Of a stretch of 55,920 nt of DNA, positions 11,646-45,986 are shown one piece after another. Both the position numbers and the translations under genes were made by a program. How positions within the stretch are numbered: position 1 is the stretch's first letter; each line of letters starts with the position of its first letter. Origin of the DNA: a bacterium (GTDB lineage Bacteria > SZUA-182 > DTGQ01); the NCBI GenBank assembly GCA_040752695.1, contig JBFMGO010000029.1, positions 1 to 55,920 of the forward strand. Direction: 5' to 3'. A model generated the notes under the pieces. It ran no database searches and was not told the origin of the DNA. It saw nothing but the letters and a program-made list of their open reading frames with translations.

Positions 11646-14600
11646 TTAGGCACCTGGTGGTGGGCCAGCAGGCTCCAGGATCGTAATGTTCACATCTGCA
11701 CTGACCGTATTGCCTGCGCTATCCGTTGCCGTTACCGTTATGGTCTGAGGTCCTTGCGGCAGTGCATCGCTGTAAACCGTTTCTCCTGTTCCAATCATCT
11801 GTCCGCCCGCCGACAGAGTCCAGACAATTGAATCGGAGGGCAGACTCCCATCTTCTTCATCGAAAACGGTGGCTGAAAATGTGATATTCATCCCATACTC
11901 AAAGCTGTCTCCATTCGTGGGCGACATTATGGTGACCACTGGAGGATTATCCGTCTCTGGAGGAGGTTCATTGACAGTAATGGTCACGCTGGTACTACCC
12001 GTATTGCCACGACTGTCCGTTACCGTTACGGTTATTGTATGTTCCCCCGCCGACAGGCCGCCATAGTCGGTCCACTCTCCTGTTCCAATCGTCAATCCAT
12101 CCGGCAATTCAGTCCAGACGATCGAATCTCCGGTGAGAGTTCCATCTTCATCGTCATAAGCAGTGGCCTCGAATTCGATAGTCGCGTTATAGTCATAGAC
12201 AGCCCAATTGAGGGGCGATAACATGGTAACCATTGGAGGGTTATTCGTCGGCGTAGGTTCATTAATGGTAATGGTCACGCTGGCACTGGCTGTATTCCCA
12301 TCGCTGTCCGTCACGGTTACGGTTATATCCTGAGTTCCGGGCGGCAGTGCATAATAGTAAAAGGCTGTCCCTGTTCCAAACGGCTCGGCCAGCGACGATG
12401 ATGTCCACACAACCGCATCAGATGGCAGATCTCCATCTTCTTCATCGTACACCCAGGCTTCGAAGGGGATATCATCCTCATAGTAATAGATGGCGCCGGG
12501 CGAGGGCGATGAAATGCTGACTGCTGGAGGAGTATTGGTCGGGTTAACCGGTTCGTTGATAGTAACGGTCACGCTGGCACTGGCTGTATTCCCATCTTTG
12601 TCCGTCACGGTTACGGTTATATCGTGCGTTCCGGAGGGCAGCACATCGTAGGAAAACTCTGTCCCTATTCCGAATTGTCCGACAAGTGACGATGTCCAGA
12701 CAACCGCCTCAGGCGGAAAGGAGACATCATCCTGGTCATAAATATAGGCCGTAAACCAGATGGGAGCCTCAAACTCGTATATCTCGCCATTCCAGGGCGA
12801 TTCTATGGAGACCGAGGGAGGATATCCGCCACAGGGCGGGATATCGTACCAAATGTGTGTATAGCCCTGGTCTTTCAGGGCATCCACCGGGAACCATACC
12901 GGCACCTGCGGATTCGGCATCCCTGAAAAGACCAGAACCATCTCCGGCGTGGCAGGAATACCGCTTAAGGTAAGGACGCACGGACCTGGCCAGGTATCGG
13001 GCATAGTAACAGATGTTACTATTATTTGATTGCCGCCGCAGTCCAAAGCCTCCATGGGCGTTCCCTCGGGGCTATCGATCCGGTTGGGATCAAGCAGGCG
13101 GTAGTTTGCCGGATTTCCGGCCCAATCAGCGGGTATGCTGTCATCGTACGTGTAATCAACCGTCAGGGTGGCTACGGGCACATCCTGACCGGGTTCACTC
13201 GCTAAGGAGAAGCTGGTGTACGGAGAAATAAAGATCGGAGCCGGCACATGCACATCGAAGGAGCATGGAGCATCGGTCAGTGGCTGACCATCGATGGTTT
13301 TGCACCTTTCCGATATATTGACGGTATAGTCACAAGGCGGCTGGTTCAAGAAGCCATCGCCTGTATAGAAAGCGGTAATCACCGTGACCGTGTTGTTCTC
13401 ATACCATGTCTGCTCAACCCAACTGGGGAACAGGGTCTCACTCCAGGGATTGGTGATTACGAGCTCATCTCCTCCTATTCTTGTCGTATTCGGATCCATG
13501 GGCACGTCGAATTGAATGGCGATCTTCCCGGCTCGCACTCTCCAGTAGTCATACGAGCCTCCTTCATCGAAGACGTTCCGTATGTCGTGCATGGTTTCCA
13601 CACCGACTACATCCAATACTCTTCCGGTGTACGCTTTTCCCTGGAAGGTGGCAACACCGTTTTGCGGCAGTATCTCATACACCTTGTCGGAGTCCTTAAC
13701 ACCGGTTACCTGCAAGGTGTATTCCACTGTTTCCTGCGGGTCGGTCTTGATCAGGACCTGGCCATCTCCAGGCAAGATAGTTGATGCGTAGGCCGGGTCG
13801 CACTGATTGGGATCCCAGCCATTGGGATCCCATCTGTTGTTCTCATAGCATGCATAATCCAGAACATGCTGGATTCCCAGTTCCCTGATTACTCCATTTC
13901 CATCCACGTAGGAAATGTTGTAATTATCGGCATTGAGAGCGGTTTCGGAATCCAGTGCCTCAGTGAAGTACAAGCGGATGTAGTCATGGTCCTCTCCGCC
14001 CAGCCGCTCGATACCCTGCAGCCTGAACACGTATTCAGGCTGGTTGATGGTAATGGTCACGATTTCAGTGGCCGTATTATTGTCACTGTCTGTCACGGTT
14101 ACGGTTATTTCGTGGATTCCAGGTGGCAGCAGGTTATTATAGGAGAACTCTGTCCCTGTTCCATAGCAGAACCCTGTCCCTGTTCCGATTTGTCCGATCG
14201 ACGACAATGTCCAGACTACTGCATCAGGTGGCAACCATCCATCTTCTTCATCGTATACCCAGGCATCAAAGCAGATAGCGTCCCCAAAGGCAAAGATAGA
14301 GCCATCCCCAGGTGATGAAATGACGACCGATGGAGGAGTGTCCGTGGGGATAGGCGGTTCATTGATGGTAATGACTACGGTTTCAGTGACCGTATTACCA
14401 TCGCTGTCTGTCACGGTTACGGTTATTTCCTGCATCCCGGACGGCAGCAGGTCATAGGGAACCGATGTCCCTGTCCCGAATGGTCCGATCAGCGACGATG
14501 TCCAGACAATCGAATTAGGCGGCAGTTCTCCATCTTCTTCATCGTAGACAGAGGCTTCGAACCAGATCATGTCCCCATACTCGTAGATGGCACCAGACGA

Positions 14601-17600
14601 GGGCGATGACATACTGACCCCTGGGGGATTATTCGTAGGAATGGGCGGATCGTTGATGATGATGGTTATACTGGCGCTGGCCGTATTCCCATCTTTGTCC
14701 GTCACGGTTACGGTTATATCATGGGTACCGGACGGCAGCGCATCATAGTAAAAATCCATCCCTGTTCCAAATGGTCCGACCAGCGACGATGTCCAGACCA
14801 CCGCCTCAGGCGGGAACGAGTCATCATCTTCATCGTAAATAGAGGCTGAAAACCAGACGGTGCTCTCATAATCATAGGTCTCACCATTATACCAGGGCGG
14901 TCCTATGCTGACCTGTGGCGGATATCCTCCACAGGGAGGCCTGTCACACCAAATACCTGAGTAGCCTACGTCTTTCAGGGCATCCACCGGGAACCATGCC
15001 GGTATTTGGTAATTCGGTAATCCCGAAAAGACCAGAATCATCTGCGGTGTGGCCGGAATACCACTTAAGGTGAGGACGCATGGCCCCGGCCAGGAATCGG
15101 GCATAGTAACGGATGTTACCGTTATTTCATTACCGTTGCAATCCAAAACCGGCCTGAATATTATCTTAGGAGTATCGATCTGGTTCGGATCAGATTCATT
15201 GGTATCCATCCAGTTAGGATCAAGCAGGCGGTAATTTCCTGGATTTTGGGCCCAATCAGTGGGTATGCTTCCCTCATAACTGTAATCGACCGTCAGGGTG
15301 TTCTGACCGGGTTCACTCGTTACGGAGAAACAACTGGTGTACGGTGAAAAGAAGACAGGCTCCTGGACGTATACATAGAAGGAATACGGGGCATCGGTCA
15401 GTGGCTCGCCCTGGGCGTTTTTGCACTTTTCCGTTATCTTGACTCTCAAGTCGCGGGGTGTATAGTTCCAATATCCATCAGCCGCATAGAAAGCGGTAAT
15501 TACCGTGATCGTGTCGTTCTCATACCATGCCTGCTCGAACCCGCTGGGATATATTTCCTCATCCCAGAAAGTGGTGAGTATGAGCTCATCTCCTCCTATC
15601 CTGGTCGTATTTGGGTCCATGGGCACGTCGAACCGAATGGCTATCATCTCGGTTCGCACTCTCCAATTGCCATATGAAGATCCTGCATCAAAGGCATTCC
15701 CGATATCGTGCATGGTTTCCACACCGGCCACTTCCATTACCTTTCCGGTATACTTTTTCCCCTTGAATTTGGCGATACCCCTCTCCGGCAGTATCTCATA
15801 CCGTCGGCTGGAGTTCTTGACACCGGTTACGTGCAGAGTGTATTCCACCGAATCCTGCGGATCGGTCTTGATCAGAACCTGGCCATCTGCCCTCATGACG
15901 GGTGGTGCATAAGCTGGATCACATTGATTAGGATCCCAGCCATCAGGATTCCAGACATTAGGATCCCAACTGCTGTTATCGTAGCAATCGTGATCCACAA
16001 CCCACTGAATTCCCAGTTCTCTGGTTGCCCCATTGCCATCCAGGTAGGAAATGCTGTAATTGTTGGCATCCAGAGCGGTTTCGGAATCCACATCCTCATT
16101 GAAGTACAGGCGGATGAGGTCATAGCGGTCTTGTTCTTCCTGCTTAACACCTTTCAGCTCGGGCAGGATGATATCCGGGTTGACGACGAGGATCCATTCC
16201 CCCGGAGTATTGGCAAATTGACCCTTCAGGGTCCATGGCAGATTTCCATCTATCTCGGGCGGAGTCAGGTGGTCCAGCCCCTTCAGTGTCTGCACCTTGA
16301 TTAAGGCATACTGAACCGGCTGGTAATGCAACTCGGCCATGTCAGCATAGTCTGAATCTGACACTTGGTTTTGATCGCGATAGAATCTCCAGTCGACACG
16401 ATTAGCATCCCCAAGGTCGACCGGCTGAAAGGATATGATGTTCGGGTCTTTGAAATCAAAGGCATTAAAGCAGCCTGAAGATGCATGAAAGGTTAAAACT
16501 CCCATTCTGTTATCCGCATTCACCCAGATTTTGGGCTTCTCCGTAGTGAAAGAGAAAGTATACGGAATATTATACTCGATCCCGACCGTACTGTTCGAAT
16601 CACCGAAGGATAAAGAATCAAACGAGCTATCAATACCCTTGACGGTAATTCGATATTCAGTATCCGGCAGTACCTGCCTGAAGTTGAAGGCAACCAGACT
16701 GACCTGCTGCCAGGGGCCATCGCATTGCCATCCCCACGGTGAATAATGGCCCAGCGGGCAGTCACCAAAATACGGATTATACTCAACCAGGTAGTCGTCA
16801 CCCTGAATGAGCTGAGTTTCACCAGCCCAGATTTCAGCATCGATGCCGCCGGAAATATAAGGCTGAGCAAAGTACAGGTTGACCCGTCTGTATTCCAGGT
16901 CAACATTTTCCTCTCCATCGTGCGGCTCCGTGCGATAGAGCAGCTTCTGCACTTTCGGTCCTTCTTCCTCGCTCTGGCACATGGTGGTAAAGACCAGGTC
17001 CTTATCCACCCAGAGGAAAGGTACGCCATCGCAGACTAAAGCCTTGGTGTCAGGATCGGTGTTCAAATGGATTCTGTAATTGGTGCAGGTATCCATTGTA
17101 AAGGCAATCTGCAGCCGGGACCATCCGAACTCCTGCTCGGACCAGAAAAACGCGGGCACCGGATAGTTGGGATGTTCAGGCCCGGGATCTGCCCCGGCTC
17201 CGTAGTAGCTGCCGATAACCTCGATGCTGTTCTCAACGACATCCTTCATCCCTTCCGTCAACTGGCCGCAGAACTGAATCGTGACCACATTATCCGTGCC
17301 GCTCTCATCCAGATAATAACCGGTCTCTCCCTGCTCCGGATTGGTATACGCTATCCCCACTCTCTCGGTGGAGAAGTGATGAGTCCTTTCGGGCAGCAAG
17401 GAACCGTCATCGGCCTTGATATTCCTCATGGTGAGCGTAAAATGGGAAGATGCGGGAAGTGATTGAGGTATCAGGCTAAAATCATTCGGACTATACTGAT
17501 AGAATGGAACATCCTGCCAGACGCTGCCACTATCCGTAGCCAGGACAAAATCCGCTTCGGAAATATTGACACCGACATTATACCTGAAGTAAAGATCACC

Positions 17601-19568
17601 CGATCCGCACTCCAATATTTCCCCCTCAGCCGGATACCGGTCCACCAGACGGGGAACTTTGGTCCGGAATGTGCCGGAGAAGGCCGCAATCTTCTTGCCT
17701 TTGAAAGAAAGTGCCTCGCCATCCAGCTCGATCCTGTAGACATGGTCATATCGGCGGGGGAAGAAAATAGCCAGCCGGTCGCCGATGCGCTGCTTGCCTT
17801 CTGCACTGTCGCACTCTTCGCAATCATAAGGATGATTTGGATCATACGGGTAGTCGGGAGAATCAGAGTGCGATCCGCTATCTCCGAATCCGGGCAGCGG
17901 CACCCAGGCCAGTTTGTATGAAGGCTCCTGGTCGGTGGCGTTCTGCCTGGCCGGGATCTCTACTCCATTGGTATCGTTAAATACATGAATATGCTCCTGC
18001 ACGGAATCGCGGTCGGTAATGGTATTGAAAATCAGGGTCACCGGCTCATCGAGGCCGTTTTCGATGCTGCCGCTCTTTGGAAGCATGGCGGCAACTTGAG
18101 GAGAGGCGGTGGTGAACTGAATGGTGAAATTCCCGGTGACCGGATCAAACTTATCAGGAGGATGGAAAATATTCACGATAGGGTCACCAAAGATGGTCCT
18201 GATAGATGACGCCAATACGATAGCATAGCTCGTGTTCTCTGCATAGAGTCCATGAATTTCGATATCGGTTTTACCCCAGATCACTCTTTGTCCCGGCAGA
18301 GCCGGTGTAATAGTCAGGTCCGTATCGAGATTCACCGAGTTTTGGTCGATCAGATTGGTGAATCCGGCTCTGACGCACCCTCCCACATCAATACCGGTTG
18401 CTCCGTTGGGAATAAAATAATCGTCATCGTCGTCACCACCATCAATCATCCAGGCCATCAGCTCTCTCATCTCGAAGGAGTAGATATAGTCATGGTACAG
18501 GGGATTGCCGCCTTTGTCCTTGATTGTATTCTTAATGCGGATGACATACTTACCAACCGGCATCTCGCTGCCGGCAATCTTCTGACCGTCATCCTTCACG
18601 GGAATAATAGTCAGCTTGCAGGGTGAAGGAGAAAAGGACCACGGCCCATCATCTTCCTGATAATAGTCACTAAAATAAGCATCGTACCACCCCCATTCGA
18701 ATTTCCAGCGTAGATTTCTGTCTGCAAATGCCGGCGGGGCTTCGATCAGAACCGTTTCCCCTTCCTTGACCGAATTGGCGTCCATTTCCCGGGTGAATTT
18801 CACGAGGATTCCCGGCTGGGGATAAAAGGCGCCGCTGTAATCACTAAATAACTCGTAGCGATGAACAATGGCCGGATGGTTGGGATCATGGCTTTCTCCG
18901 ATTTTATCGGGAGCTACGTAGTCGATGGAGGCGAAGCGGCCAATGATGGAACCCTCAATGGTCCCCATATCTCTGGTCCTTCCTGCCTCTATGGCTACCT
19001 CATCGTTCAGGGCAAAATCTTTTCCATCATCTTGACCACGCATAACCCCTACCCGGTAGTTTCCGATGGGGATTCCCCTGATCTTGTAAACCCCGTTAGA
19101 GTTAGTGACTGCCATGAACTGGGTCCCATACAGGAAAACCACCACTCCCTGCTGCGGGCTCTGGAACCAGGTGATCCGGCCGGTCAGATCACCGGTCGCG
19201 GTCAGGACAAAATCCAGATTGACGGTTCCAGCCAAAAGCCTCACCTTCTGAGAAGCCTTTTGATTGCTCTTCTCATCAGCTATTATGATATAACTGCCCT
19301 GTTGCAGGGACATGAGATAATTGCCAGCCGAGTTGGTGAAAGCGGTGCGAACGGGCTGGGAGTCCTGGCCGGGAATAGAGCTATCGGGATATGCGGAAAT
19401 CAAAACCCCATCCTTCGGTACCCCATTGCTGACAACTGTCCCGGTGAGGATGCCCTGACCTTTCAGTTGTCCCTCGCTCGTAGTTTCGTTGTCCTTTGTG
19501 GAACACCCCAGCCCGAGAAGGAAAATAAAGGCCAGTAGAAAGGTCCACGTTTTTTTGGAAGCGCGCAT
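11646..19568 (-). CDS. Giant surface lipoprotein (2640 aa) with carboxypeptidase-regulatory-like, SbsA/Big-like and PKD-like Ig repeats
   Basis: Signal peptide ending LLGLGC; beta-sandwich motifs; two copies of an approx. 400-aa module; seven approx. 100-aa repeats PPxVxIxSP...VYDEEDG..VWTS..ITVTVTDxDGN; acidic composition; SD AGGAG upstream. Confidence 0.85.
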   Translation of the reverse strand: MRASKKTWTFLLAFIFLLGLGCSTKDNETTSEGQLKGQGILTGTVVSNGVPKDGVLISAYPDSSIPGQDSQPVRTAFTNSAGNYLMSLQQGSYIIIADEKSNQKASQKVRLLAGTVNLDFVLTATGDLTGRITWFQSPQQGVVVFLYGTQFMAVTNSNGVYKIRGIPIGNYRVGVMRGQDDGKDFALNDEVAIEAGRTRDMGTIEGSIIGRFASIDYVAPDKIGESHDPNHPAIVHRYELFSDYSGAFYPQPGILVKFTREMDANSVKEGETVLIEAPPAFADRNLRWKFEWGWYDAYFSDYYQEDDGPWSFSPSPCKLTIIPVKDDGQKIAGSEMPVGKYVIRIKNTIKDKGGNPLYHDYIYSFEMRELMAWMIDGGDDDDDYFIPNGATGIDVGGCVRAGFTNLIDQNSVNLDTDLTITPALPGQRVIWGKTDIEIHGLYAENTSYAIVLASSIRTIFGDPIVNIFHPPDKFDPVTGNFTIQFTTASPQVAAMLPKSGSIENGLDEPVTLIFNTITDRDSVQEHIHVFNDTNGVEIPARQNATDQEPSYKLAWVPLPGFGDSGSHSDSPDYPYDPNHPYDCEECDSAEGKQRIGDRLAIFFPRRYDHVYRIELDGEALSFKGKKIAAFSGTFRTKVPRLVDRYPAEGEILECGSGDLYFRYNVGVNISEADFVLATDSGSVWQDVPFYQYSPNDFSLIPQSLPASSHFTLTMRNIKADDGSLLPERTHHFSTERVGIAYTNPEQGETGYYLDESGTDNVVTIQFCGQLTEGMKDVVENSIEVIGSYYGAGADPGPEHPNYPVPAFFWSEQEFGWSRLQIAFTMDTCTNYRIHLNTDPDTKALVCDGVPFLWVDKDLVFTTMCQSEEEGPKVQKLLYRTEPHDGEENVDLEYRRVNLYFAQPYISGGIDAEIWAGETQLIQGDDYLVEYNPYFGDCPLGHYSPWGWQCDGPWQQVSLVAFNFRQVLPDTEYRITVKGIDSSFDSLSFGDSNSTVGIEYNIPYTFSFTTEKPKIWVNADNRMGVLTFHASSGCFNAFDFKDPNIISFQPVDLGDANRVDWRFYRDQNQVSDSDYADMAELHYQPVQYALIKVQTLKGLDHLTPPEIDGNLPWTLKGQFANTPGEWILVVNPDIILPELKGVKQEEQDRYDLIRLYFNEDVDSETALDANNYSISYLDGNGATRELGIQWVVDHDCYDNSSWDPNVWNPDGWDPNQCDPAYAPPVMRADGQVLIKTDPQDSVEYTLHVTGVKNSSRRYEILPERGIAKFKGKKYTGKVMEVAGVETMHDIGNAFDAGSSYGNWRVRTEMIAIRFDVPMDPNTTRIGGDELILTTFWDEEIYPSGFEQAWYENDTITVITAFYAADGYWNYTPRDLRVKITEKCKNAQGEPLTDAPYSFYVYVQEPVFFSPYTSCFSVTSEPGQNTLTVDYSYEGSIPTDWAQNPGNYRLLDPNWMDTNESDPNQIDTPKIIFRPVLDCNGNEITVTSVTMPDSWPGPCVLTLSGIPATPQMILVFSGLPNYQIPAWFPVDALKDVGYSGIWCDRPPCGGYPPQVSIGPPWYNGETYDYESTVWFSASIYDEDDDSFPPEAVVWTSSLVGPFGTGMDFYYDALPSGTHDITVTVTDKDGNTASASITIIINDPPIPTNNPPGVSMSSPSSGAIYEYGDMIWFEASVYDEEDGELPPNSIVWTSSLIGPFGTGTSVPYDLLPSGMQEITVTVTDSDGNTVTETVVITINEPPIPTDTPPSVVISSPGDGSIFAFGDAICFDAWVYDEEDGWLPPDAVVWTLSSIGQIGTGTGFCYGTGTEFSYNNLLPPGIHEITVTVTDSDNNTATEIVTITINQPEYVFRLQGIERLGGEDHDYIRLYFTEALDSETALNADNYNISYVDGNGVIRELGIQHVLDYACYENNRWDPNGWDPNQCDPAYASTILPGDGQVLIKTDPQETVEYTLQVTGVKDSDKVYEILPQNGVATFQGKAYTGRVLDVVGVETMHDIRNVFDEGGSYDYWRVRAGKIAIQFDVPMDPNTTRIGGDELVITNPWSETLFPSWVEQTWYENNTVTVITAFYTGDGFLNQPPCDYTVNISERCKTIDGQPLTDAPCSFDVHVPAPIFISPYTSFSLASEPGQDVPVATLTVDYTYDDSIPADWAGNPANYRLLDPNRIDSPEGTPMEALDCGGNQIIVTSVTMPDTWPGPCVLTLSGIPATPEMVLVFSGMPNPQVPVWFPVDALKDQGYTHIWYDIPPCGGYPPSVSIESPWNGEIYEFEAPIWFTAYIYDQDDVSFPPEAVVWTSSLVGQFGIGTEFSYDVLPSGTHDITVTVTDKDGNTASASVTVTINEPVNPTNTPPAVSISSPSPGAIYYYEDDIPFEAWVYDEEDGDLPSDAVVWTSSSLAEPFGTGTAFYYYALPPGTQDITVTVTDSDGNTASASVTITINEPTPTNNPPMVTMLSPLNWAVYDYNATIEFEATAYDDEDGTLTGDSIVWTELPDGLTIGTGEWTDYGGLSAGEHTITVTVTDSRGNTGSTSVTITVNEPPPETDNPPVVTIMSPTNGDSFEYGMNITFSATVFDEEDGSLPSDSIVWTLSAGGQMIGTGETVYSDALPQGPQTITVTATDSAGNTVSADVNITILEPAGPPPGA

Positions 19569-19645: not shown

Positions 19646-22600
19646 TCACTCTGCAGGAATAGTGACCGTCTGGGTTAGTCCCAAATAATTGTCACGGTTA
19701 ACTATCACGTAGTAGGTCCCGGGTGGAACGTCAAAAAATTCATAATAACCATTCTCATTGGTTACCGTCTTCTGATCCCAGACCTCTGGGCCGTCGGCAT
19801 GATACATTTCCACTGCCGCGCCGGAGACGGGATTGCCATCTTCATCTCTCACCGTACCGGTAACAGCGGGGGGTGCCTGCTCAAGTACGTATATCCACAC
19901 ATCATCCTTTCCAGTAATTGTGCTGTTTGCGTTTACGGTCACGGTCAGCCAGATATGGTAGCTGCCCGCTGTGTCCGCGCTAAACACGGTGTTCTGAGTA
20001 CTTGAGGAATCCAATGAAGCATTGGCACCGGTCTCTATGCTGTTGGGGTCAATTCTCCAGTTTATGGTATAGGGCTCATCAGCAGGATTGATGCCTATCT
20101 GGGCACTCAAGGCAGCCGTCGGTGGATTTCCCATATCTTCCAGGTAAAGCACCTGGTTTTCGCCTGCATCCACGGTCAGGGAAGCTACCCGGATATCGAT
20201 GGTACCGGTAGTCTCCCTGAGCCCATCGCTGACCTTGAGGGAAATGGTATAATCTCCGGTATTCTGAGGTGCTTTCCAGGTGATCTGGCTCGTACCCTGT
20301 CCGGATGGAATCGTTCCTCCGGTGCAAGACCATGCATAGCTGATCTGTCTTCCTTCAGGGTCTGTCACCACAGCCTGGATTGAGATCTGCTCATTAGGCA
20401 GGACGCTTTTCTTCGTTGCAGTCAAACTCGTAATCTGCGGTGCATTATTGGCTGCTACTAGCAGCGGCACCGTTTTACTGCTTGATCGGGGTTGAGCGGC
20501 ATACGTATCCTGAACGGTCACCATGATATCCTGGGTGCCGACATAGACCGGATTATCCGGTACGGTCCAGCTAAGAGCGGGGCCCGTGCCGATGGTTACC
20601 CCCCGGCAGGACCAGGTGTAGGTGAGAGGATAGATTCCAGCAGGATCGTCCGGATCAACCGCCTTGGCGGTGAGTTTCACCGTATCTGCCAGAATGCACT
20701 GGCCGGGCACGACCCCGATCGATGTAACCACCGGCGCCCTGTTAGCCAGAACGGTCAGGGATACCCCTTTTTCCGCCTTCTTGCCCCCGCTGTCGGTTAC
20801 CGTCACCCGTACGGTGAATTCCGCAGGCTTATTTGCATCGAACTCATCTCCCTCGAACAGATCTGCGGGAATAATCAGACTCGCATTCTGGCCATTCGGA
20901 TAGGTTAAAGACCATTCGGAATCCGATACCGCTCGTGCGTTCGGGTCTATGATTTTCCATGTATAGTGCAGACTCAAGGGATCTCCATCCGGGTCATAGG
21001 CGACCACACTAAAGCTTTGGGTTCCTCCCGGTATGCCGGTTATCGCCTTTGACGGTGTCATGAGGAGGATCACCGGAGCCTCGTTCTGGGTTTCACAGGA
21101 CACTGCCTCTACCACAAGACTGATACTGGCTGTGCCGTTATCCTTCCCATCCGATACCGACACGGTCATAGAATACTTGCCGAGCTGAGGGACCTTCCAG
21201 GAGAAACGGCTGGGACTGTCAGCGGGGCTTAAGGTTTTATCCTGCATGATGAGCGGCGGGAGGGCCTTGACGATTACCGTATAGGTTAAGGGGTCATCAT
21301 CAGGATCGATAGCCGTAATATTGAGAGTGACTTTCGTCGAGTTGGGATCGGTCCAGCACACTTTAAGGCCCGGCAGAATGTCTACCTTCCGGATAATTGG
21401 CCGGAAGTTATTCACTTCCAGGTTTACATCCGCGACCGTCTCGGTAAGACCTCTTTCAGGAGTGGAAAAAGTGCGAAAGGCCGGTTTGTACTTATCCCTA
21501 TCCCTGTCACAGGAAAAGGCCACCAGAACCTCGTTCAGATTGGCGGGGACAATCAGCGTATACGTGCCATCGGCGCCCGTCAGGTCGCGGCCTCCGTATT
21601 CGCTGACGACCGCGACATCCTGCAGCGGCTTGCCGTTGCCCATCACCCTGCCGGTAATCCTGGCTACCCTGCTGTCAAGATGAAAATCGACCTGTTGCTC
21701 ACTATCAGATATGTTCGTAGATACCGTCTTTCGGTCAACCTCCACGATTCCAGCCTCAGGGATGGCTAACCTGGCCACGGCATCGAACTTGGTGCCCGCC
21801 GGCACTTTCAGCTCATACTCTCCCGTATTGGGATCAGACAGAGCAAAGGTGCCCAGCGTGGTGGAAATCCGGATATTGGGAAGCGGCTTATCGCCACTGG
21901 CGGGATCTGTTACGGTCCCATAGAGCCAGACAGACTGCACCCTGAAGGTTACGTTCGGATCGTCCCCCTGCTGCGTGTTCGGGTCCAGCCAACTGATGGT
22001 CCGGCGCTGCTCCAGGTATGTTCCGTTCTGGGCATAGTAGCGGTAGGAGATATTGACCAGTTCGGTGCCCCGTTCCACTACTACCTGGTAATTGCCCTGA
22101 GCATCGTTGGCCGTTGTAAACCCGGTATCGGCGGTAATCTTGACCTCCTTACCGGTCAGCGTCTTTTGTGTGCCATCGTCATTGATGATGGTTATGGTCC
22201 CCCGGACGTATTGGGGCGAGAGGTTAATGCTGACGATGGCATTGGGATCGCCGCAGGGAATATCCTCATTCCCTACCCACAGGTTGTGACCGACATGATA
22301 GTTGATCCGGTTATTGGTATAGGAGACTTTCAGCTTTACCTTTCTGTTCGGGGCTGATATCAGGTGGAATTCTCCGTTGGGATCGGTAAATTTTCCACCT
22401 GCGGTACTGGCATACACATAAGCGCCATGGATACCGCTGTTATTCTGGCTGTTCACTACCCGTCCGCAGATTTTCACCAGGTGAAAATCGATGTCCACCC
22501 GTTTGCAGTCGTCTCTGTTTTCATCATTTTCGTCTTTTTGCTGATCCACGTAAACGGCGTTGGGGTCCTGGACCTCATACTCGCCGAGCTGAGCAGTGAT

Positions 22601-24463
22601 GCGGGTCAAGGCGTTCTTCTTGACAGTAACCACATAGTCGCCGTTTGGGTCGGTCATGGCGAAGCTCTGCCCCTGGTAATCCACACCTTCGGCCCTGATC
22701 TGCACTCCGGCCAGCCCATTTTCATGCAGCCTGTCGTACACACGGCCATGGATGCAGCCGTGGGTTGTTACCGGCCAATCCACATTCCACCAGCTAAAAT
22801 GGGTGGCTGTGGCTACAGCGTAGACTACTTCATCTATCAGGATCAATTCCGCCTGCTGCTCGGAGAGATCCCAGGTGCTGTCGTTCGGGTCATAGGCATA
22901 CCAGGGGATAGACCGCTCTCCGCGATTATAGCTCTGACGATACATCTGCTGGAGGGCATCAGGAAGGCGGAACCGGATTTTCACGCCATCCTCAAGATCA
23001 ATGTCGTTGACTGGCGTGCCGTCTTCATATTCCAGAGTGAATTCCCCCAGGACCACTGACTCGAGCTTTTTCTCCCTCTCATCCTCTTCCCCGGCAGCAT
23101 TGGGATCACTGGTAGTGAAGTCTCCGGGGAAGGCGTCGATTTCTTTGGTAGGATCGAGGGGAGTTATCTTGACATAAATAGCGGGCTCCTCCTGTTCTGC
23201 GGCGTAGCGGGCCGGAAAAGCGCTCTTGCGGCGGGACAGGGTATGGCGAATCCTGCGCAGATCTTTCGGGGAGAAAGTCAGCGACATGGCATCATCCATG
23301 GCGTTTATCTCTAATTCTCCCTCATCCAGGTACCGGGCACGGGCACGGGAACTGGCCACGATTCCTCCCTCCATATCCAGCTTCACCCGGGAAACGACCG
23401 CCTTCATGATAACGACCACCCCCTGACTCTTTTCCTCAGGAGAAATTTTAGCCACAGTCTGAGTGCTGGCGTAGCCGGGTGCCTTCATGTCTATGATCAA
23501 ATCCATTCCGACAGGCAGTTGAGAAAAGAAGAAATTCCCATTTTCATCCGTCTGACTCTTAAAAGCCGTACCGCGGATGGAGGCAGTGGCCCCCGCGACA
23601 GGGCTTTGCGAATCCAGGTCGAATACACTGCCGGTCAATTGGCCTTTTCCGCGGTCTGCCGCTGCGGCCAGGGCCAGATACTTGCTCAGACTGGCCTCTT
23701 GAGGCAGCCAGCCACCGGCAATGCGGTCAATTACCCGGTCTATGCTGCCTGCATTCGGGTCATCCTGATTCACCTGATAACTTATCAAATTGCTGATCCG
23801 CCGCACCAAAGCAGCATTCTGAGCGGATTGGGCAGCATTGCTGCTGAACCCGGAAAGATCACTGCTGGAGATAATTCCGGGGGAATTGGCATCGATCTGC
23901 TGCAATTTCATCTGTAGCAAGACAAGGGCAGTATCCAGGCTGATGCCTGGATTTTTCACAAGATACGACCGCAGTAAAGAGGTGATGGGATTCAGGTGGA
24001 CCTGCAACGATTTATGCTGCGTGTCGCCACCGGTGGTCGATCCTGCATCGTTCTCTGCATCCTTCAGGGAGGCTACACCGTACAGAATGCCATTGAATTC
24101 CGCGCCGGAATTGGCGAATCTCCCACCCTCAGCCCTGGTGTAGAGTACTTGCGTATCGTCATCTACCTCTACCTGCGTTTGGTAGGTTCCGTTGTAAAGA
24201 GTGCTGGTGCGGGCGATGGGGTGATTGGGATCGGTTACGTAAAAGATAACATTGGCATCGGCCAGGATGTCGTCATAAACTTCTCCCGTGAGATTAAGGG
24301 TGAGGGTGGTTTCATCTCCGCCGCCACCACCTCCTCCACCTCCATCTATTGCGTCGTCTGTTTGAGAGCTGCCACCACCACCTCCTCCACAGCCGGAGAT
24401 CAGGAAGGCTGTTAAAAAGGCAATCATGAGATGGATCAGAAAAGATTTTTTATTTTTCCTCAT
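19646..24463 (-). CDS. Large surface lipoprotein (1605 aa) with repeated carboxypeptidase-regulatory-like and PKD/Ig domains
   Basis: Signal peptide LISGC followed by poly-Gly tether; repeated GxVxD...GA...TDxNGxY units; NxAPxI...DPDxDPLxYxW Ig/PKD repeats; HFSWWNVD motif. Confidence 0.85.
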   Translation of the reverse strand: MRKNKKSFLIHLMIAFLTAFLISGCGGGGGGSSQTDDAIDGGGGGGGGGDETTLTLNLTGEVYDDILADANVIFYVTDPNHPIARTSTLYNGTYQTQVEVDDDTQVLYTRAEGGRFANSGAEFNGILYGVASLKDAENDAGSTTGGDTQHKSLQVHLNPITSLLRSYLVKNPGISLDTALVLLQMKLQQIDANSPGIISSSDLSGFSSNAAQSAQNAALVRRISNLISYQVNQDDPNAGSIDRVIDRIAGGWLPQEASLSKYLALAAAADRGKGQLTGSVFDLDSQSPVAGATASIRGTAFKSQTDENGNFFFSQLPVGMDLIIDMKAPGYASTQTVAKISPEEKSQGVVVIMKAVVSRVKLDMEGGIVASSRARARYLDEGELEINAMDDAMSLTFSPKDLRRIRHTLSRRKSAFPARYAAEQEEPAIYVKITPLDPTKEIDAFPGDFTTSDPNAAGEEDEREKKLESVVLGEFTLEYEDGTPVNDIDLEDGVKIRFRLPDALQQMYRQSYNRGERSIPWYAYDPNDSTWDLSEQQAELILIDEVVYAVATATHFSWWNVDWPVTTHGCIHGRVYDRLHENGLAGVQIRAEGVDYQGQSFAMTDPNGDYVVTVKKNALTRITAQLGEYEVQDPNAVYVDQQKDENDENRDDCKRVDIDFHLVKICGRVVNSQNNSGIHGAYVYASTAGGKFTDPNGEFHLISAPNRKVKLKVSYTNNRINYHVGHNLWVGNEDIPCGDPNAIVSINLSPQYVRGTITIINDDGTQKTLTGKEVKITADTGFTTANDAQGNYQVVVERGTELVNISYRYYAQNGTYLEQRRTISWLDPNTQQGDDPNVTFRVQSVWLYGTVTDPASGDKPLPNIRISTTLGTFALSDPNTGEYELKVPAGTKFDAVARLAIPEAGIVEVDRKTVSTNISDSEQQVDFHLDSRVARITGRVMGNGKPLQDVAVVSEYGGRDLTGADGTYTLIVPANLNEVLVAFSCDRDRDKYKPAFRTFSTPERGLTETVADVNLEVNNFRPIIRKVDILPGLKVCWTDPNSTKVTLNITAIDPDDDPLTYTVIVKALPPLIMQDKTLSPADSPSRFSWKVPQLGKYSMTVSVSDGKDNGTASISLVVEAVSCETQNEAPVILLMTPSKAITGIPGGTQSFSVVAYDPDGDPLSLHYTWKIIDPNARAVSDSEWSLTYPNGQNASLIIPADLFEGDEFDANKPAEFTVRVTVTDSGGKKAEKGVSLTVLANRAPVVTSIGVVPGQCILADTVKLTAKAVDPDDPAGIYPLTYTWSCRGVTIGTGPALSWTVPDNPVYVGTQDIMVTVQDTYAAQPRSSSKTVPLLVAANNAPQITSLTATKKSVLPNEQISIQAVVTDPEGRQISYAWSCTGGTIPSGQGTSQITWKAPQNTGDYTISLKVSDGLRETTGTIDIRVASLTVDAGENQVLYLEDMGNPPTAALSAQIGINPADEPYTINWRIDPNSIETGANASLDSSSTQNTVFSADTAGSYHIWLTVTVNANSTITGKDDVWIYVLEQAPPAVTGTVRDEDGNPVSGAAVEMYHADGPEVWDQKTVTNENGYYEFFDVPPGTYYVIVNRDNYLGLTQTVTIPAE

Positions 24464-32921: not shown

Positions 32922-32932
32922 GGAGAATAACC

Positions 32933-41262: not shown

Positions 41263-43854
41263 ATGAAGATTAAGCCGAGCCGTTTTCTTATTACCCTCCT
41301 TATTGGTTTTTTGATGGTCACCTGCGGCTGTTTCGACAAAGACGATGATAAAGATGATGATAATAATACACCCCCGCCGGTCACTCTTACCAGTATTGAC
41401 GTAACACCAGCAAATTCAACGATAAGCCAGGGAGCGACACAACAATATACAGCCATGGGTAACTATGCCGATGGCAGCACCGGCAATATTACCGGTCAGG
41501 TCACCTGGGCGAGCTCTGATACAGCGATAGCCACTATTACGGCCGCGGGAGGACTGGCTACGGCCACAGCTCCCGGGCAGACCAGCATTACCGCCAGCCT
41601 GTCCGGCATTACCAGCACTGCCAAGACACTGACCGTTAATCTCTCTACGAATATCTTAATGGGCAAGGTCATTTCCAGTCCGAATGATCTGGCAGCCGAC
41701 TTCGATGCTGCGGTTCAGGCAATAAAAACCGCGGTCGGTCAATTTTCCTTCACGCCTGATGGCAGTACTACGCCGGTCAATCCCTGGAAGGTAGTGGAAG
41801 AGCAGTCCATGCCTTTCCCTGCGGGAAGGCATGGACTGCTCCTGGAGATTTGTGCCCCCATGTTTGCCGATGATGCCATGGCTATGGGGCAGTATCATGC
41901 TCTGGGTATGCCCTGCAAGATCGGCATCTGGACTGAGGACAGCGATGAAGATGGGGAAGATGACCTGATCAAGATCAATAGCTTTGACGAGTCAGCGCTC
42001 TTTGGCTTCTTTTTTGCCGATGCCGTGAATGCGCCAACCTTTGGTCAATTTGCCGCTCTCATCAGAAGCCATACCAGGTCGATCGTCCAAAGTGCAATCA
42101 CCGCTTTGGGTGGTGTATGGCTCTACGAGTATCAGGCACCCTTTTTTACCAAGGCAGAACTGGAGCAGACTGCCCAGGCATGGAAAACTGATGCAAAGGG
42201 CTATGCCGATCCGAACCACGGGTATGGCATACAATTTGAGGTCTCCCTGCCGCCTGACAGTCTGAACCTGGGGTCGGACGATCCGAATTCTCCCGGGAAT
42301 TTTCTGAGCAAGGTGAAACAGAAAATCGTTTCCGCGATTGGCACTACCCCCTACAGTCGTGAGGATTGGGAGGTAATCGATCCCAATTTTAAAATTCCCG
42401 TGAAGGATTATCAAGATCCTAACTATGCCAAGATCGCAGAAATAAAGATACACTCCCCCTACTATGCCAGACAAATAGTTGATCTGGGAGGAAAGTATAT
42501 AGTAGCCTTACCGTATGCCATCTCAGTCTGGCTCAATGATCTTGCTCAGGATGGCACTCGCCAGGACCCTGACAGGGTGATTGTCGGTGTCCTTAACCCT
42601 GAGTATGTGCTGAAGAATTTCCTCAAGGATGAACCTGAAAATGTCCGGTCGCGTATGCTCGGCACAGCGATTGAGATGAAAAATCAGATCCTGGCTATGG
42701 TTAATAACGGGTTGAAGGAGTATACTCTTATCGGTACCAGGCCGCAGCCACGTATTTCCACTGGTGTACTGATGGGCAAGATACCCATTTCGTCAGGTAC
42801 ATTGGAGGCAGATGCCTTTGATGCAGCGGTCCTGGCTGTGAAAACTGCGGTAGCTGGCTATGTGCCTCAGGGAACTACAGTGCCTCCCTGGAAAGTGCCT
42901 GAAGAAAAAGACATGCCATTAGCCGGGGGAAGAAAAGGCAAACTGGTGGAGATTTGCGCTCCTGGGTATGCGGCTATGGCCATGGCTATGGGCCAGCACC
43001 ATGCACTGGGCCTGCCCTGCAAGATCGGCATCTGGACAGAGGACGAAGATGGCGATACTTTTGGTGATGTTGTCAAAATCAACAGGTTCGACGAGCCAGC
43101 GCTCTTTAACTTTTTCTTTGCTGATGTTATGAGTGATCCAAACTTTGGTCCGTTCGCAGCAATGATCAGCAGTCAGACGAAAGAGATCGTGAAAATTGCC
43201 ATTACCAGTCTCGGAGGGGAATGGATCTTCGAGCATCACTCGCCTTTCTTTACTCAGGCGGAAATGCAGGCTGTCCAGGCATGGAAGAACGATACAAAGG
43301 GCTACGCCGATCCGAACCGCGGCTATGGCATAGTATATGAAGTTCCCCTGCCGGCCGGAAGTCTGAATCTCGCGCTGGACGATCCGAATTCTCCCCGGAA
43401 TTTTCTGGCTAAGATCAAAAACAGCATAATTTCAGCCGCAGATGACACTTCCATACCGAATGTACAGGACGACTGGCAGGTAATCGACCCCAATTTCAAC
43501 ATTCCGGTGGGTGATCTTGCCCATACTTTTGCCTCGGTCGGAGAGATAAAATTATGCTCTCACCAGTATTCCGAGCAGGTAGTCGCCTTGGGAGGGAAAT
43601 ATATGATAGCCTTCCCGTGCACTATCTCGGTCTGGCTCAATGATCTTGCACAGGATGGCAGCCATCAGGATCCTGACAAGGTGATTGTCAGCATCCTGAA
43701 TCCGGAATTTATCCTGAAAAACCACTTCAAGGATCAGCCTTCCACGGTACTTCAATCAATGGCGCCTATGGGCGGTGTAATCGCAGGAGAACTGAAAGCC
43801 ATAGTCGATAAGGGGCTGGAAAATTTCTCCGGTGTGGTTTCTCCGGCAGAATAA
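41263..43854 (+). CDS. Lipoprotein with a Big_2 Ig domain and a duplicated 371-aa module (four DUF302-like repeats)
   Basis: Leader ending VTCGC; SIDVTPANSTI..GATQQYTA.G.Y.DG..VTWASSD Big_2 pattern; modules start at 41644 and 42757; EICAP...ALGxPCKIGIW resembles DUF302. Confidence 0.8.
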   Translation: MKIKPSRFLITLLIGFLMVTCGCFDKDDDKDDDNNTPPPVTLTSIDVTPANSTISQGATQQYTAMGNYADGSTGNITGQVTWASSDTAIATITAAGGLATATAPGQTSITASLSGITSTAKTLTVNLSTNILMGKVISSPNDLAADFDAAVQAIKTAVGQFSFTPDGSTTPVNPWKVVEEQSMPFPAGRHGLLLEICAPMFADDAMAMGQYHALGMPCKIGIWTEDSDEDGEDDLIKINSFDESALFGFFFADAVNAPTFGQFAALIRSHTRSIVQSAITALGGVWLYEYQAPFFTKAELEQTAQAWKTDAKGYADPNHGYGIQFEVSLPPDSLNLGSDDPNSPGNFLSKVKQKIVSAIGTTPYSREDWEVIDPNFKIPVKDYQDPNYAKIAEIKIHSPYYARQIVDLGGKYIVALPYAISVWLNDLAQDGTRQDPDRVIVGVLNPEYVLKNFLKDEPENVRSRMLGTAIEMKNQILAMVNNGLKEYTLIGTRPQPRISTGVLMGKIPISSGTLEADAFDAAVLAVKTAVAGYVPQGTTVPPWKVPEEKDMPLAGGRKGKLVEICAPGYAAMAMAMGQHHALGLPCKIGIWTEDEDGDTFGDVVKINRFDEPALFNFFFADVMSDPNFGPFAAMISSQTKEIVKIAITSLGGEWIFEHHSPFFTQAEMQAVQAWKNDTKGYADPNRGYGIVYEVPLPAGSLNLALDDPNSPRNFLAKIKNSIISAADDTSIPNVQDDWQVIDPNFNIPVGDLAHTFASVGEIKLCSHQYSEQVVALGGKYMIAFPCTISVWLNDLAQDGSHQDPDKVIVSILNPEFILKNHFKDQPSTVLQSMAPMGGVIAGELKAIVDKGLENFSGVVSPAE

Positions 43855-44133: not shown

Positions 44134-44162
44134 TTGACAAAAACTTTTGAAAGGGGTATTTT
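44134..44162 (+). promoter_or_regulatory. Sigma70-type dcw promoter
   Basis: TTGACA (44134-44139), 17 nt, TATTTT (44157-44162). Confidence 0.7.
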
Positions 44163-44170
44163 TTGGTTAT

Positions 44171-44205
44171 GTGTAGCGAAGTGGGACAATGTGGGAGATG
44201 GTGAC
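44171..44205 (+). promoter_or_regulatory. MraZ-binding direct repeats
   Basis: GTG(GG) units at 10-nt spacing (44171, 44181, 44191, 44201) just upstream of mraZ. Confidence 0.75.
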
Positions 44206-44211
44206 AAGAAG

Positions 44212-44643
44212 GTGTTCATCGGAAAGTACGAGCATAATCTTGATAATAAAGGCAGGATAAGCGTTCCGGCTAAAATTCGGGACACTCTTCGAGACGAATA
44301 CAAGGATGAAAAACTCATCCTGACCTGCTATGAAAATTACCTTGTAGCTTACCCCCTCAAGGAATGGCTGGACATCGGCCAGAGGATCCGGCAGGCCCCC
44401 AATATGGAAAAAGGCGTCAGTGATTTCATGCGGCTTTTATTCTCCAATGCTTCTGACGTGAGCTTTGACAGGCAGGGAAGGATCCTGATTCCCCCTCAGA
44501 TGAGAACCAGAGCAGGCATCGATAAAGCGGTAGTCATGGTAGGTGTGATGAATAAGATTGAGATATGGGCTCAGGACAAGTGGCTTGAGTTTGAGAACAC
44601 GGTTCAACTGGATCGGGAAAGGCTAGCCAGCTTTGGAATCTGA
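44212..44643 (+). CDS. mraZ: Transcriptional regulator MraZ
   Basis: FIGKYEHNLDNKGRISVP and DRQGRILIP AbrB-like repeats, KIEIW; GTG start 44212. Confidence 0.95.
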   Translation: MFIGKYEHNLDNKGRISVPAKIRDTLRDEYKDEKLILTCYENYLVAYPLKEWLDIGQRIRQAPNMEKGVSDFMRLLFSNASDVSFDRQGRILIPPQMRTRAGIDKAVVMVGVMNKIEIWAQDKWLEFENTVQLDRERLASFGI

Positions 44644-44664
44644 CGGAAATTCGGCATTTTTGAC

Positions 44665-45663
44665 ATGTACATTCATCGACCCGTATTACTGAAGGAGGTT
44701 TTAGCCTATCTTGAGTGTGCTGACGGGAAAGTTTACGTCGATGGTACGATAGGTGAAGGAGGGCATGCAGAGCAGATTCTTAAGGGGAGTTCTCCCACCG
44801 GTAGATTGATTGGAATTGACCTTGACGAGCATATTCTTCAGAAGGCCGCCGGGCGCCTCGAAAGGTTCGGCTCCAGGGTACAACTTATTCGGAATAACTT
44901 CAAAAACATCAAAGAAATTTTATATGAGCTTGAATTGCCCGGGATCGACGGCTTTCTCGCTGACCTTGGAATTTCCAGCTTCCATCTGGAAACCCGGGAG
45001 CGGGGCTTCAGCTTTCAAAAGGATGCGCCCCTCGACATGCGCCTCGACCAGAGAAATCCCCTGACTGCGGCCAAGATCGTTAACCGGAGCAGGGAAGAGG
45101 AACTGGCCCGAATTATATGGGAGTATGGCGAAGAGAGGTGGAGCCGGAAGATCAGCCGGGCTATTGTGTCTTATCGGAAAAAAGAGGTAATTTCCACGAC
45201 TGGCCAGTTGGCAGAGATTGTACGGTCAGCTATTCCAGCCAGATTTCGTCCGAGAGGGTCGGAAACGGGAAGACGGTTGCCGGGCGGGGCAGGACAGATA
45301 GACCCGGCTACCAGGACCTTTCAGGCTCTGCGCATAGCTGTTAATCAGGAGCTCGCGGGGCTGGATCAGGCTATCAGGGATGTCGTGGATTTACTCAACC
45401 CGGGAGCGCGGATCTGCATCATATCTTTTCATTCCCTCGAGGACCGGATTGTTAAAAGGATCTTTCGAAATCTTGCCTCATCCGGTTCGATGTGCACTGA
45501 TGGCCTGGCCGCACCTTTTGTTCCCCTTCCCCGTGGGGAGAGGGCCGAGGTGAGGGGAAGGATAAAAGTTTTGACACAGAAGCCCGTTATGGCCACGGAA
45601 GAGGAAAAAATGGCCAATGCACGGGCGAGAAGTGCAAAGCTCAGAGTGGCTGAAAAGTGGTAG
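44665..45663 (+). CDS. rsmH: 16S rRNA m4C1402 methyltransferase RsmH
   Basis: HRPVLL, DGTIGEGGH, DLGISS, PLDMR, FQALRIAVNQEL, SFHSLEDRIVK, RSAKLR. Confidence 0.97.
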   Translation: MYIHRPVLLKEVLAYLECADGKVYVDGTIGEGGHAEQILKGSSPTGRLIGIDLDEHILQKAAGRLERFGSRVQLIRNNFKNIKEILYELELPGIDGFLADLGISSFHLETRERGFSFQKDAPLDMRLDQRNPLTAAKIVNRSREEELARIIWEYGEERWSRKISRAIVSYRKKEVISTTGQLAEIVRSAIPARFRPRGSETGRRLPGGAGQIDPATRTFQALRIAVNQELAGLDQAIRDVVDLLNPGARICIISFHSLEDRIVKRIFRNLASSGSMCTDGLAAPFVPLPRGERAEVRGRIKVLTQKPVMATEEEKMANARARSAKLRVAEKW

Positions 45664-45986
45664 TCAATAAAAAAGTACAGAACCCGGATGCCCATCGGGA
45701 GTTGTCGCCTCATGCGGTGCGGCAGCTCTGGAGGCAGGTTCCGATGATTATCCTTTTTGTCCTTTTGGGTTTATTTCTCGCCTGGAGGCCGATTCAGACT
45801 GCGAGATTGATCAGAGACATCGACCGGTTAAACCGGTTAAAGGCTGAAACGATGGAAATCAATGTCCGGCTGAAACTGGAAAAGGCAACCCTGACCTGCC
45901 TTGACAGGGTAGAGAATCTGGCCAGAAAAGAGTATGGATTCGTTGATCCGAATCAGAATCAAGTCATTGATGTTTTTATAAAATAG
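45657..45986 (+). CDS. ftsL: Cell division protein FtsL
   Basis: Position between rsmH and ftsI; one TM segment, coiled coil, RVENLARKEYG tail. Confidence 0.8.
   Translation: MVVNKKVQNPDAHRELSPHAVRQLWRQVPMIILFVLLGLFLAWRPIQTARLIRDIDRLNRLKAETMEINVRLKLEKATLTCLDRVENLARKEYGFVDPNQNQVIDVFIK

Follow-up and report, generated by a model that had tools for sequence, protein, structure and literature searches.

A lineage-restricted excess of the tripeptide Asp-Pro-Asn in the exported proteins of an uncultured bacterial order

Do the exported proteins of an uncultured bacterium share a sequence signal that its cytoplasmic proteins lack? The question arises from contig JBFMGO010000029.1 (assembly GCA_040752695.1; GTDB lineage SZUA-182; DTGQ01), which we analyzed over its entire 55,920 bases and call the window; here the tripeptide Asp-Pro-Asn (DPN) recurs in several large proteins predicted to leave the cytoplasm. 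A preliminary description proposed that DPN might be the sequon of a noncanonical periplasmic modification, such as a divergent N-glycosylation, or else a Ca-binding or turn motif under selection. We found that, throughout the exported proteome of one uncultured order, DPN is maintained by selection at a density roughly five times that expected by chance, and that the motif's excess is absent from the cytoplasmic proteins of that order, from the cytoplasmic parts of its single-span proteins, and from the exported proteins of unrelated bacteria.

We translated 31 larger open reading frames (ORFs) of the window, besides an FtsL-like ORF, and computed the expected number of DPN from each protein's own composition. 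The window total is 35 DPN (∼28 without internal duplicates) versus ∼1.5 expected. The 2640-amino-acid (aa) exported protein (11646..19568, minus strand) has a signal peptide/lipobox-like N terminus and beta-sandwich domains of the Ig-like, PKD, and CarboxypepD_reg types by Pfam; it contains 12 DPN versus 0.87 expected, at codons 18879-18887, 17835-17843, 16440-16448, 15957-15965, 15927-15935, 15609-15617, 15213-15221, 15183-15191, 13821-13829, 13806-13814, 13488-13496, and 13083-13091. A 1605-aa lipoprotein with CarboxypepD_reg and PKD domains (19646..24463, minus strand) contains 14 versus 0.38 expected, at 24224-24232, 23753-23761, 23099-23107, 22883-22891, 22643-22651, 22559-22567, 22376-22384, 22241-22249, 21977-21985, 21953-21961, 21827-21835, 21341-21349, 20939-20947, and 20042-20050. 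On the plus strand, an 863-aa lipoprotein (41263..43854) combines a Big_2 domain with two copies of a DUF302-containing module and contains 8 versus 0.20 expected, at 42208-42216, 42280-42288, 42379-42387, 42415-42423, 43135-43143, 43309-43317, 43381-43389, and 43486-43494. The remaining site lies in an ftsL-like gene with a Pfam DivIC match (45702..45986, plus strand), beyond the membrane helix at residue 82 of 94 (codons 45945-45953). None of the other 28 of the 31 ORFs encodes DPN. The earlier hand count (12, 14, and 8, one in the FtsL tail, and none in RecQ, the kinase, GlgA, PGM, or the Mur ligases) was thus exact; DAN, of which it also noted several, occurs three times in each of the two giant proteins and not in the 863-aa protein.

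These 35 sites are encoded by 14 different 9-base codon strings, so DPN is not a DNA repeat, in agreement with the preliminary description. Internal duplication likewise explains only part of the count: by flanking sequence, sites at residues 1202, 1212, 1318, and 1450 of the 2640-aa protein pair with 1914, 1919, 2025, and 2160, and residues 316, 340, and 373 of the 863-aa protein pair with 683, 707, and 742, which accounts for seven sites, four in the former and three in the latter. Residues 1150 to 1560 of the 2640-aa protein (14889-16121, minus strand) form a duplicated module with the segment 'WDPNxW..DGWDPNQCDPAY'. A search of 1.84 billion representative proteins with this region gave 5 matches, itself included; judged by sequence, the module is a lineage-restricted domain, and its closest relative contains 6 DPN versus 0.43 expected.

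The genome to which the window belongs (G000; 6.05 Mb in 239 contigs, 96.6% complete) provides the test at proteome scale. Genes were called with a crude heuristic of our own (ORFs of at least 90 codons, scored by codon-usage log-odds trained on long ORFs, with greedy choice of nonoverlapping candidates), yielding 3949 genes that cover 81% of the genome. Export classes, also heuristic, were based on the N-terminal 45 residues (charge, hydrophobic core, and A-x-A or lipobox) and on the number of hydrophobic helices: 2232 proteins were cytoplasmic, 798 had a signal peptide, 351 were single-span, 461 multi-span, and 107 had a signal peptide plus one helix. When we ran this pipeline on 200 kb of Escherichia coli K-12, 15 of 21 known exported proteins were classed as exported and 2 as cytoplasmic, and 4 were missed by the gene caller. 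We refer to the signal-peptide and single-span classes together (SP+TM1; 1149 proteins) as exported.

Exported proteins of G000 contain 398 DPN versus 77.7 expected (5.1-fold; Poisson probability 1e-145), while cytoplasmic proteins contain 68 versus 67.8 to 69.8 expected, an observed/expected ratio (O/E) of about 0.97. The tripeptide comparison of exported and cytoplasmic proteins that the preliminary description had suggested therefore leaves the excess standing. By class, the counts are 308/61.8 (observed/expected) for signal-peptide proteins, 90/17.9 for single-span, 29/12.5 for multi-span, and 3/4.2 for proteins with a signal peptide plus one helix. At least one DPN occurs in 185 of 1149 exported proteins (71.7 expected) and in 62 of 2232 cytoplasmic ones. 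Of the tripeptides expected at least eight times in exported proteins, only three exceed DPN in O/E; these three, like 10 of the 11 highest-ranking words overall, are Cys-His words of the heme-binding CxxCH motif. The top word is CHD (72 versus 9.1), which means that Asp very often follows CxxCH in this organism. Other export-biased tripeptides of G000 include GLY, LYG, and YGG, each ∼2.8-fold enriched in exported proteins (456 to 480 versus ∼166) and at ∼0.85 in cytoplasmic ones; YGG retains 271 sites after homology collapse and looks like the 'GLYGG' repeat of a large exported family. TWT (88 versus 26.5) and NCT (70 versus 20.4) are also export biased.

The excess is spread over many unrelated proteins. 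We compared all exported proteins with one another by BLAST and linked the sites that aligned, also those within internal repeats; 339 DPN remained after this collapse (4.4-fold; Poisson probability 1e-105), and the same procedure left DPD at 1.59 and NPD at 1.76. The 185 DPN-bearing exported proteins fall into 87 single-linkage families, and exported proteins with fewer than three DPN together hold 186 versus 68.2 expected. All five length bins of exported proteins are enriched (2.8- to 6.6-fold), compared with 0.84 to 1.19 for cytoplasmic proteins, and sites are evenly distributed along the exported chains.

Enrichment is 7.6-fold for proteins with lipoprotein signal peptides, 4.7-fold for type I signal peptides, and 5.0-fold for single-span proteins. 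When 161 single-span proteins were oriented by the positive-inside rule, the parts outside the membrane contained 38 DPN versus 6.4 expected and the inside parts 5 versus 2.8. Multiheme proteins (at least two CxxCH) hold 30 versus 6.5, and 16 prepilin-type proteins hold 12 versus 0.59. Three of the four pilin clusters of G000 (contigs C7, 44.7 to 48.1 kb; C97, 1.6 to 3.2 kb; C1, 56.2 to 66.3 kb; C77, ∼15.4 to 19.0 kb) are DPN rich (5/0.18, 4/0.08, and 7/0.35), whereas the GspG-K-type, that is, type II secretion system-type, pseudopilin cluster on C77 has 0 versus 0.13, numbers too small to test; the excess might be tied to filaments that reach the cell surface. Among 16 candidate substrates of twin-arginine translocation (Tat), all four DPN lie in one doubtful 1299-aa protein, which gives no power as a test of folding before export.

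How far the excess extends was addressed by applying the same pipeline to samples of 11 other genomes. Two members of the same genus gave, for exported and cytoplasmic proteins, respectively, 24/2.9 and 4/4.2 (G002, 367 kb) and 4/0.9 and 1/1.3 (G001, 128 kb); a member of the same family gave 7/1.9 and 2/1.8 (G004, 148 kb); and two members of the same order gave 38/6.8 and 6/3.4 (G007, 321 kb) and 6/0.5 and 1/0.8 (G006, from another family, 53% GC, 72 kb). Pooled, these five relatives have 79 DPN versus 13.0 in exported proteins. G016 (271 kb), the sole genome sampled from elsewhere in the class, has 2/1.3 exported, too few to tell whether the excess extends from the order to the class, and 5/3.8 cytoplasmic. 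The distant bacteria gave 2/2.2 and 6/6.6 (G028, 28% GC, 400 kb), 1/2.8 and 6/7.5 (Desulfosarcina widdelii, 400 kb), 1/0.8 and 5/3.6 ("Candidatus Entotheonella," 200 kb), 1/1.0 and 3/3.2 ("Candidatus Electrothrix laxa," 200 kb), and 1/1.4 and 1/3.6 (E. coli K-12, 200 kb). The exported proteins of these six bacteria, G016 included, show no excess when pooled (8 versus 9.5), so the match in unrelated taxa that the preliminary description named as refuting its reading was not seen. The MraY protein of G000 is 81% identical to that of a bacterial metagenome-assembled genome (MAG) and 64 to 67% identical to those of Deltaproteobacteria, Nitrospinota, and Nitrospirota MAGs.

Two other ways of surveying genomes were discarded. 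Pooling 79 dcw loci of diverse genomes as a control gave an apparent 3.3-fold excess that proved to come from repeated counting of a single FtsI motif and a single MurC motif, and counting DNA patterns (GAYCCNAAY versus those for NPD, DPD, and NPN) gave ratios that failed to separate positive from negative genomes (e.g., 0.55 versus 0.49). In dcw loci outside G000, some dozen FtsI proteins have a conserved 'P-x-F/Y-D-P-N' motif; ftsI of the window (46045-48177, plus strand) encodes no DPN, its sole Asp-Pro being the 'VDPQ' at residue 563.

The contrast between compartments is specific to DPN. Its near relatives DPD, NPD, NPN, and DPS have exported/cytoplasmic O/E values of 1.97/1.81, 2.12/2.16, 1.55/1.67, and 1.28/1.38, that is, no such contrast; the corresponding values are 1.33/1.50 for DPE, 0.61/0.42 for EPN, 0.91/0.93 for SPN, and 1.00/0.65 for DAN. 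In exported proteins, D-x-N with another middle residue lies between 0.96 and 1.22 (DAN 1.00, DSN 0.96, DGN 1.22, DDN 1.00; Asn in the middle is also within this range). Thus, the order, the Pro, and the Asn of DPN all matter. Around the motif, Glu is nearly excluded immediately after the Asn (1 versus 23 expected) and Asp is not (32 observed); Val (58 versus 24) and Pro (45 versus 20) are enriched at +2 and Asp at +3 (44 versus 24; 1.8-fold), and Lys is rare two residues before the Asp (4 versus 19). Ser and Thr directly follow the Asn at 48 and 39 of 394 sites, each only 1.6-fold enriched; at +2, Thr is at 27 of 394 (1.1-fold) and Ser shows no enrichment. Flanking positions otherwise carry little information.

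Structural models place the motif in loops. An AlphaFold2 model of residues 560 to 960 of the 1605-aa protein, built on an alignment of six orthologues (mean predicted local distance difference test score [pLDDT] of 80), is a string of predicted beta-sandwich domains; the solved structures closest to it in fold are Gram-positive pilins, TIE proteins, and Ca-stabilized adhesin repeats (PDB 4p99 and 6xi1). All seven DPN of this region fall in DSSP coil, in loops between strands: those at residues 605, 633, 694, and 877 are predicted to occupy hairpin loops of 4 to 6 residues, those at 739 and 835 would form the final three loop residues before a strand, and that at 827 appears to lie within a 13-residue loop. 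In a model of a pilin (90 sequences, pLDDT 89.5), one DPN caps the N terminus of a short helix just past the long N-terminal helix, and the other is in a 20-residue loop, four residues ahead of a strand. All nine modeled sites in the two proteins are therefore in loops or at a helix N-cap.

Single DPN sites are not fixed. Across 53 pairs of exported orthologues from G002 and G000 (mean identity 69%), DPN is present in both at 13 of the 39 positions that have it in either, compared with 0 of 13 for DPD, 2 of 14 for NPD, and 2 of 14 for DPS, and where one genome lacks it, the aligned tripeptide is mostly D-P-x or x-P-x. For the 1605-aa protein, six orthologues from databases (55 to 63% identity) have 12, 5 (a partial protein), 14, 11, 9, and 8 DPN versus ∼0.3 expected each; across the seven family members, DPN occupies 23 alignment positions, of which 1 is common to all seven and 3 are found only in the window protein. 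Likewise, 29 orthologues of a GspG-like pilin at 57 to 73% identity contain 32 DPN versus 0.8, at two homologous positions, whereas 90 homologues at 40 to 55% identity contain 3 versus 1.9 and have AAA, AKA, or SGT there. The G002 orthologue of the 863-aa protein (contig C49; 474 identical residues in 886 alignment columns) has no DPN; the residues aligned with the motif are GTK, EGQ, RND, DNP, and APG. The two DUF302-containing modules of the G002 protein are near identical over long stretches; those of the 863-aa protein have diverged, yet three DPN positions are common to both, and this comparison suggests recent duplication or gene conversion of the modules in one lineage. Overall, these alignments indicate that DPN sites persist somewhat better than other turn motifs yet still turn over, and that it is density that is conserved across the order. 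This retention of density, the loop positions, and the use of D-x-x alternates by orthologues all support the earlier suggestion of a turn motif under selection.

If DPN is read by an enzyme, neither STT3 nor the two other periplasm-facing transferase families compared across genomes (TMEM260-like and Wzy_C) offers a candidate that tracks it. A search for STT3/PglB (PF02516) gave no match in G000 and matched 4 of 14 control genomes, all archaea; five further genomes, including G035, a relative of the lineage, also gave no STT3 match. One gene of G000 encodes a TMEM260-like glycosyltransferase of the GT-C fold (PF11028); this family is not found in the DPN-positive G001, G002, G004, G006, or G007 and is present in G016 and many distant genomes. 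Wzy_C/PglL-like ligases have 12 matches at E ≤ 1e-5 in G000, 8 in G016, and 3 to 9 in DPN-positive genomes, again without tracking the excess. At E ≤ 0.001 G000 has 15 Wzy_C matches, 12 of them over the family cutoff and several in open frames of 650 to 910 aa; sampled relatives and distant genomes have 0 to 9 each. PMT_2, a ubiquitous family (matched in 9 of 14 controls), has 8 matches in G000. The genes flanking the four pilin clusters encode the usual secretion ATPase, platform, and alignment components, and none encodes a multi-span enzyme. The co-occurrence with DPN enrichment that the preliminary description had proposed looking for was thus not observed for STT3, TMEM260-like, or Wzy_C proteins. 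Titles and abstracts in the literature yielded nothing on DPN as an exported-proteome motif.

Around the DPN-rich genes of the window, a FlgO-family protein (PF17680; E value, 8.5e-30) is encoded at 10703-11605, directly downstream of the two giant genes and on the same (minus) strand; the three may form one operon. In the division/cell-wall cluster, a gene for a metallo-beta-lactamase-fold protein with a hydrophobic N terminus (52984-53814, plus strand) lies between mraY (51819-52895) and the ORF at 53844-55322.

What, then, maintains DPN? The models suggest a short turn-forming motif that occupies exposed loops in extracytoplasmic proteins, where it would form beta-hairpin tips, the ends of loops before strands, or a helix cap. 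We propose, with a probability of roughly 40%, that DPN is a turn-forming loop tag recognized by a lineage-specific extracytoplasmic factor, possibly a modifying enzyme. Such a factor would recognize the tripeptide outside the cytoplasm; we infer it because DPD, NPD, and NPN are unaffected and because the effect is confined to one lineage and one compartment. In the leading form of this proposal, an enzyme unrelated to PglB/STT3 would modify the Asn or the Asp, making DPN its sequon; in a weaker form, the reader would act noncovalently, for example as a folding helper. A more specific version, which we consider doubtful, holds that DPN serves as acceptor in a general extracytoplasmic modification system without STT3, one that decorates the pili, adhesins, lipoproteins, and extracellular cytochromes of the whole order; Asn would then be the third position of a preformed turn, and the enzyme would read the folded turn rather than an extended N-X-S/T strand.

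The strongest competitor, in our view only slightly less probable, is that nothing reads DPN at all: as a very good self-capping turn, with its backbone capped by the side chain of Asp, its angle set by Pro, and a conformation that Asn can accommodate, it would simply have been accumulated by fast-evolving surface proteins for stability or against aggregation. The loop positions (9 of 9 modeled sites; four in hairpins, two before strands, one at a helix N-cap), the exchange of DPN for TDSGG, TDSSG, DPD, DPA, or DAN and, across orthologue pairs, mostly for D-P-x or x-P-x, the enrichment of Val at +2, as at the start of a strand, the lack of enrichment in conserved periplasmic proteins, and the absence of an enzyme candidate are all as this account would have it. 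However, physics is the same in all cells, yet the cytoplasm of G000 itself stands at 0.97 and six other bacteria have 8 exported DPN versus 9.5 expected; the near-equivalent turns DPD, NPD, NPN, and DPS show no exported/cytoplasmic difference; and Glu is excluded after DPN (1 versus 23) while Asp (32) is not. Nor does thermophily (the "proline rule") help, since the growth temperature estimated from IVYWREL composition is ∼35°C, so that thermostability does not explain the excess. An intrinsic structural preference therefore explains the loop positions and the D-x-x alternates but not the indifferent cytoplasm, the equal indifference of unrelated bacteria with similar folds, or the untouched DPD, NPD, and NPN, and for this reason we favor a reader.

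The other explanations fare worse. That DPN loops are sites for Ca2+ or another metal that stiffens extracellular domains is improbable: Asp and Asn often serve as Ca ligands, the model of beta-sandwich domains is similar to Ca-stabilized adhesin repeats (4p99, 6xi1) among other folds, and Asp is enriched at +3, but D-x-N with another middle residue is at expectation (DAN 1.00, DSN 0.96, DGN 1.22), which leaves the earlier suggestion of Ca binding without backing; Pro is required although it supplies no ligand, the sites are single tripeptides in unrelated loops rather than multiligand patterns (DxDxDG or the cadherin DxNDN), and unrelated bacteria with similar adhesins lack the excess. An artifact of repeats, paralogous families, gene calling, or export classes is very improbable. 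Several families do have many sites, low-complexity DPNSQ runs occur among the exported sites, and the 3.3-fold excess of the pooled dcw loci was false; against this stand the 339 sites left after collapse, the excess in proteins with fewer than three DPN, and the 87 families, together with the facts that class was assigned independently of DPN and that the same pipeline finds no excess in six genomes. Canonical PglB/STT3 N-glycosylation with a relaxed sequon, to which the acidic residue two before the Asn and the exported, loop-borne sites might have pointed, is effectively refuted: neither G000 nor five other genomes has an STT3 match, Thr at +2 is at 1.1-fold and Ser there is not enriched, and Pro occupies a position from which the PglB sequon excludes it, points the preliminary description had partly foreseen. 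Its idea of a divergent N-glycosylation sequon thus fails in its PglB-like form; in a non-PglB form it may hold.

Several observations weigh against a reader of any kind. No enrichment is seen in the exported proteins that have counterparts in distant bacteria (9168 residues aligned over 31 pairs, with 1 DPN on each side), so that the excess sits in lineage-specific, faster-evolving envelope and surface proteins. Family motifs, recognized by clustering the sites on flanking identity, contribute ∼25 inter-repeat 'LDPNN' sites of TPR proteins, 10 'ALDPNG' blade sites, mostly in one propeller protein, and 13 sites mostly in one repeat protein. In 117 Big_2 surface proteins from diverse sources, DPN is at 2.9-fold, DPD at 3.3-fold, and NPN at 2.6-fold, with many sites homologous; part of the DPN excess may therefore be generic to beta-sandwich adhesins, in which a mild general liking for Asx-Pro-Asx exists, without specificity for DPN. 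The D-x-x(-G) turns that orthologues of the 1605-aa protein use at many DPN positions are what a purely structural reading predicts. No reader was found among the STT3, TMEM260-like, and Wzy_C candidates or the pilin-cluster neighbors, and we know of no sequon that is enriched fivefold proteome-wide. Finally, gene calls and export classes are heuristic, the classes are rough, and each of the other genomes was sampled by 72 to 400 kb; misclassification, for its part, can only blur the contrast between exported and cytoplasmic proteins.

Sequence alone was enough to reveal the DPN rule, in a lineage without any cultured member, and the rule is not accounted for by any known enzyme. Should there be a reader, the density of DPN would offer an inexpensive genomic marker for finding it by phylogenetic profiling and for predicting modified proteins. 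If there is none, the case shows that a lineage can acquire a turn vocabulary of its own in a single compartment of the proteome, which would need explaining by folding outside the cell. Either way, compartment-split tripeptide statistics appear usable as a discovery tool.

Among known systems, the Campylobacter PglB sequon, D/E-X-N-X-S/T, resembles DPN in having an acidic residue two before the Asn and in being used outside the cytoplasm, in flexible loops; it differs in that it excludes Pro at X and needs Ser or Thr at +2, whereas DPN has Pro at X and no such need, its genome has no STT3 match, and its modification is only a proposal. Self-capping Asx-Pro turns are familiar from the NPNA/NVDP repeats of the Plasmodium circumsporozoite protein and the DPETG hairpin of chignolin. 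As in these, Asp/Asn-Pro-x would open a tight turn in DPN, and the LSDPNTGEY of the 1605-aa protein follows the same D-P-x-T-G pattern in a predicted 6-residue hairpin loop; these are local structural facts that hold for any organism, however, and they leave an excess in one lineage and one compartment unexplained. DPN also occurs within known family motifs: 'LDPNN' of TPR proteins (∼25 sites), the 'TDxxG' hairpin of CarboxypepD_reg (the TDPNG sites of the 1605-aa protein), and 'P-x-F/Y-D-P-N' of FtsI. Most of the 398 sites fall outside such motifs, orthologues of the 1605-aa protein have TDSGG or TDSSG in the corresponding hairpins, and FtsI of the window lacks DPN. The Bacteroidetes-type O-glycosylation motif, D(S/T)(A/I/L/V/M/T), is like DPN a clade-wide, three-residue, Asp-initiated motif found in many unrelated exported proteins, there served by one general system; unlike it, DPN offers no Ser/Thr acceptor, as Pro follows the Asp, has no linked transferase or glycan locus, and belongs to another lineage. 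The Q-rule of Bacteroidetes is likewise a sequence rule limited to one phylum and to exported proteins, and it arises from a lineage-specific envelope enzyme, a glutaminyl cyclase, that stabilizes proteins (PMC10653852); it concerns one fixed position, the new N terminus, while DPN is scattered evenly along the chain. Clade-wide, export-confined sequence rules such as these two have so far pointed to dedicated envelope enzymes.

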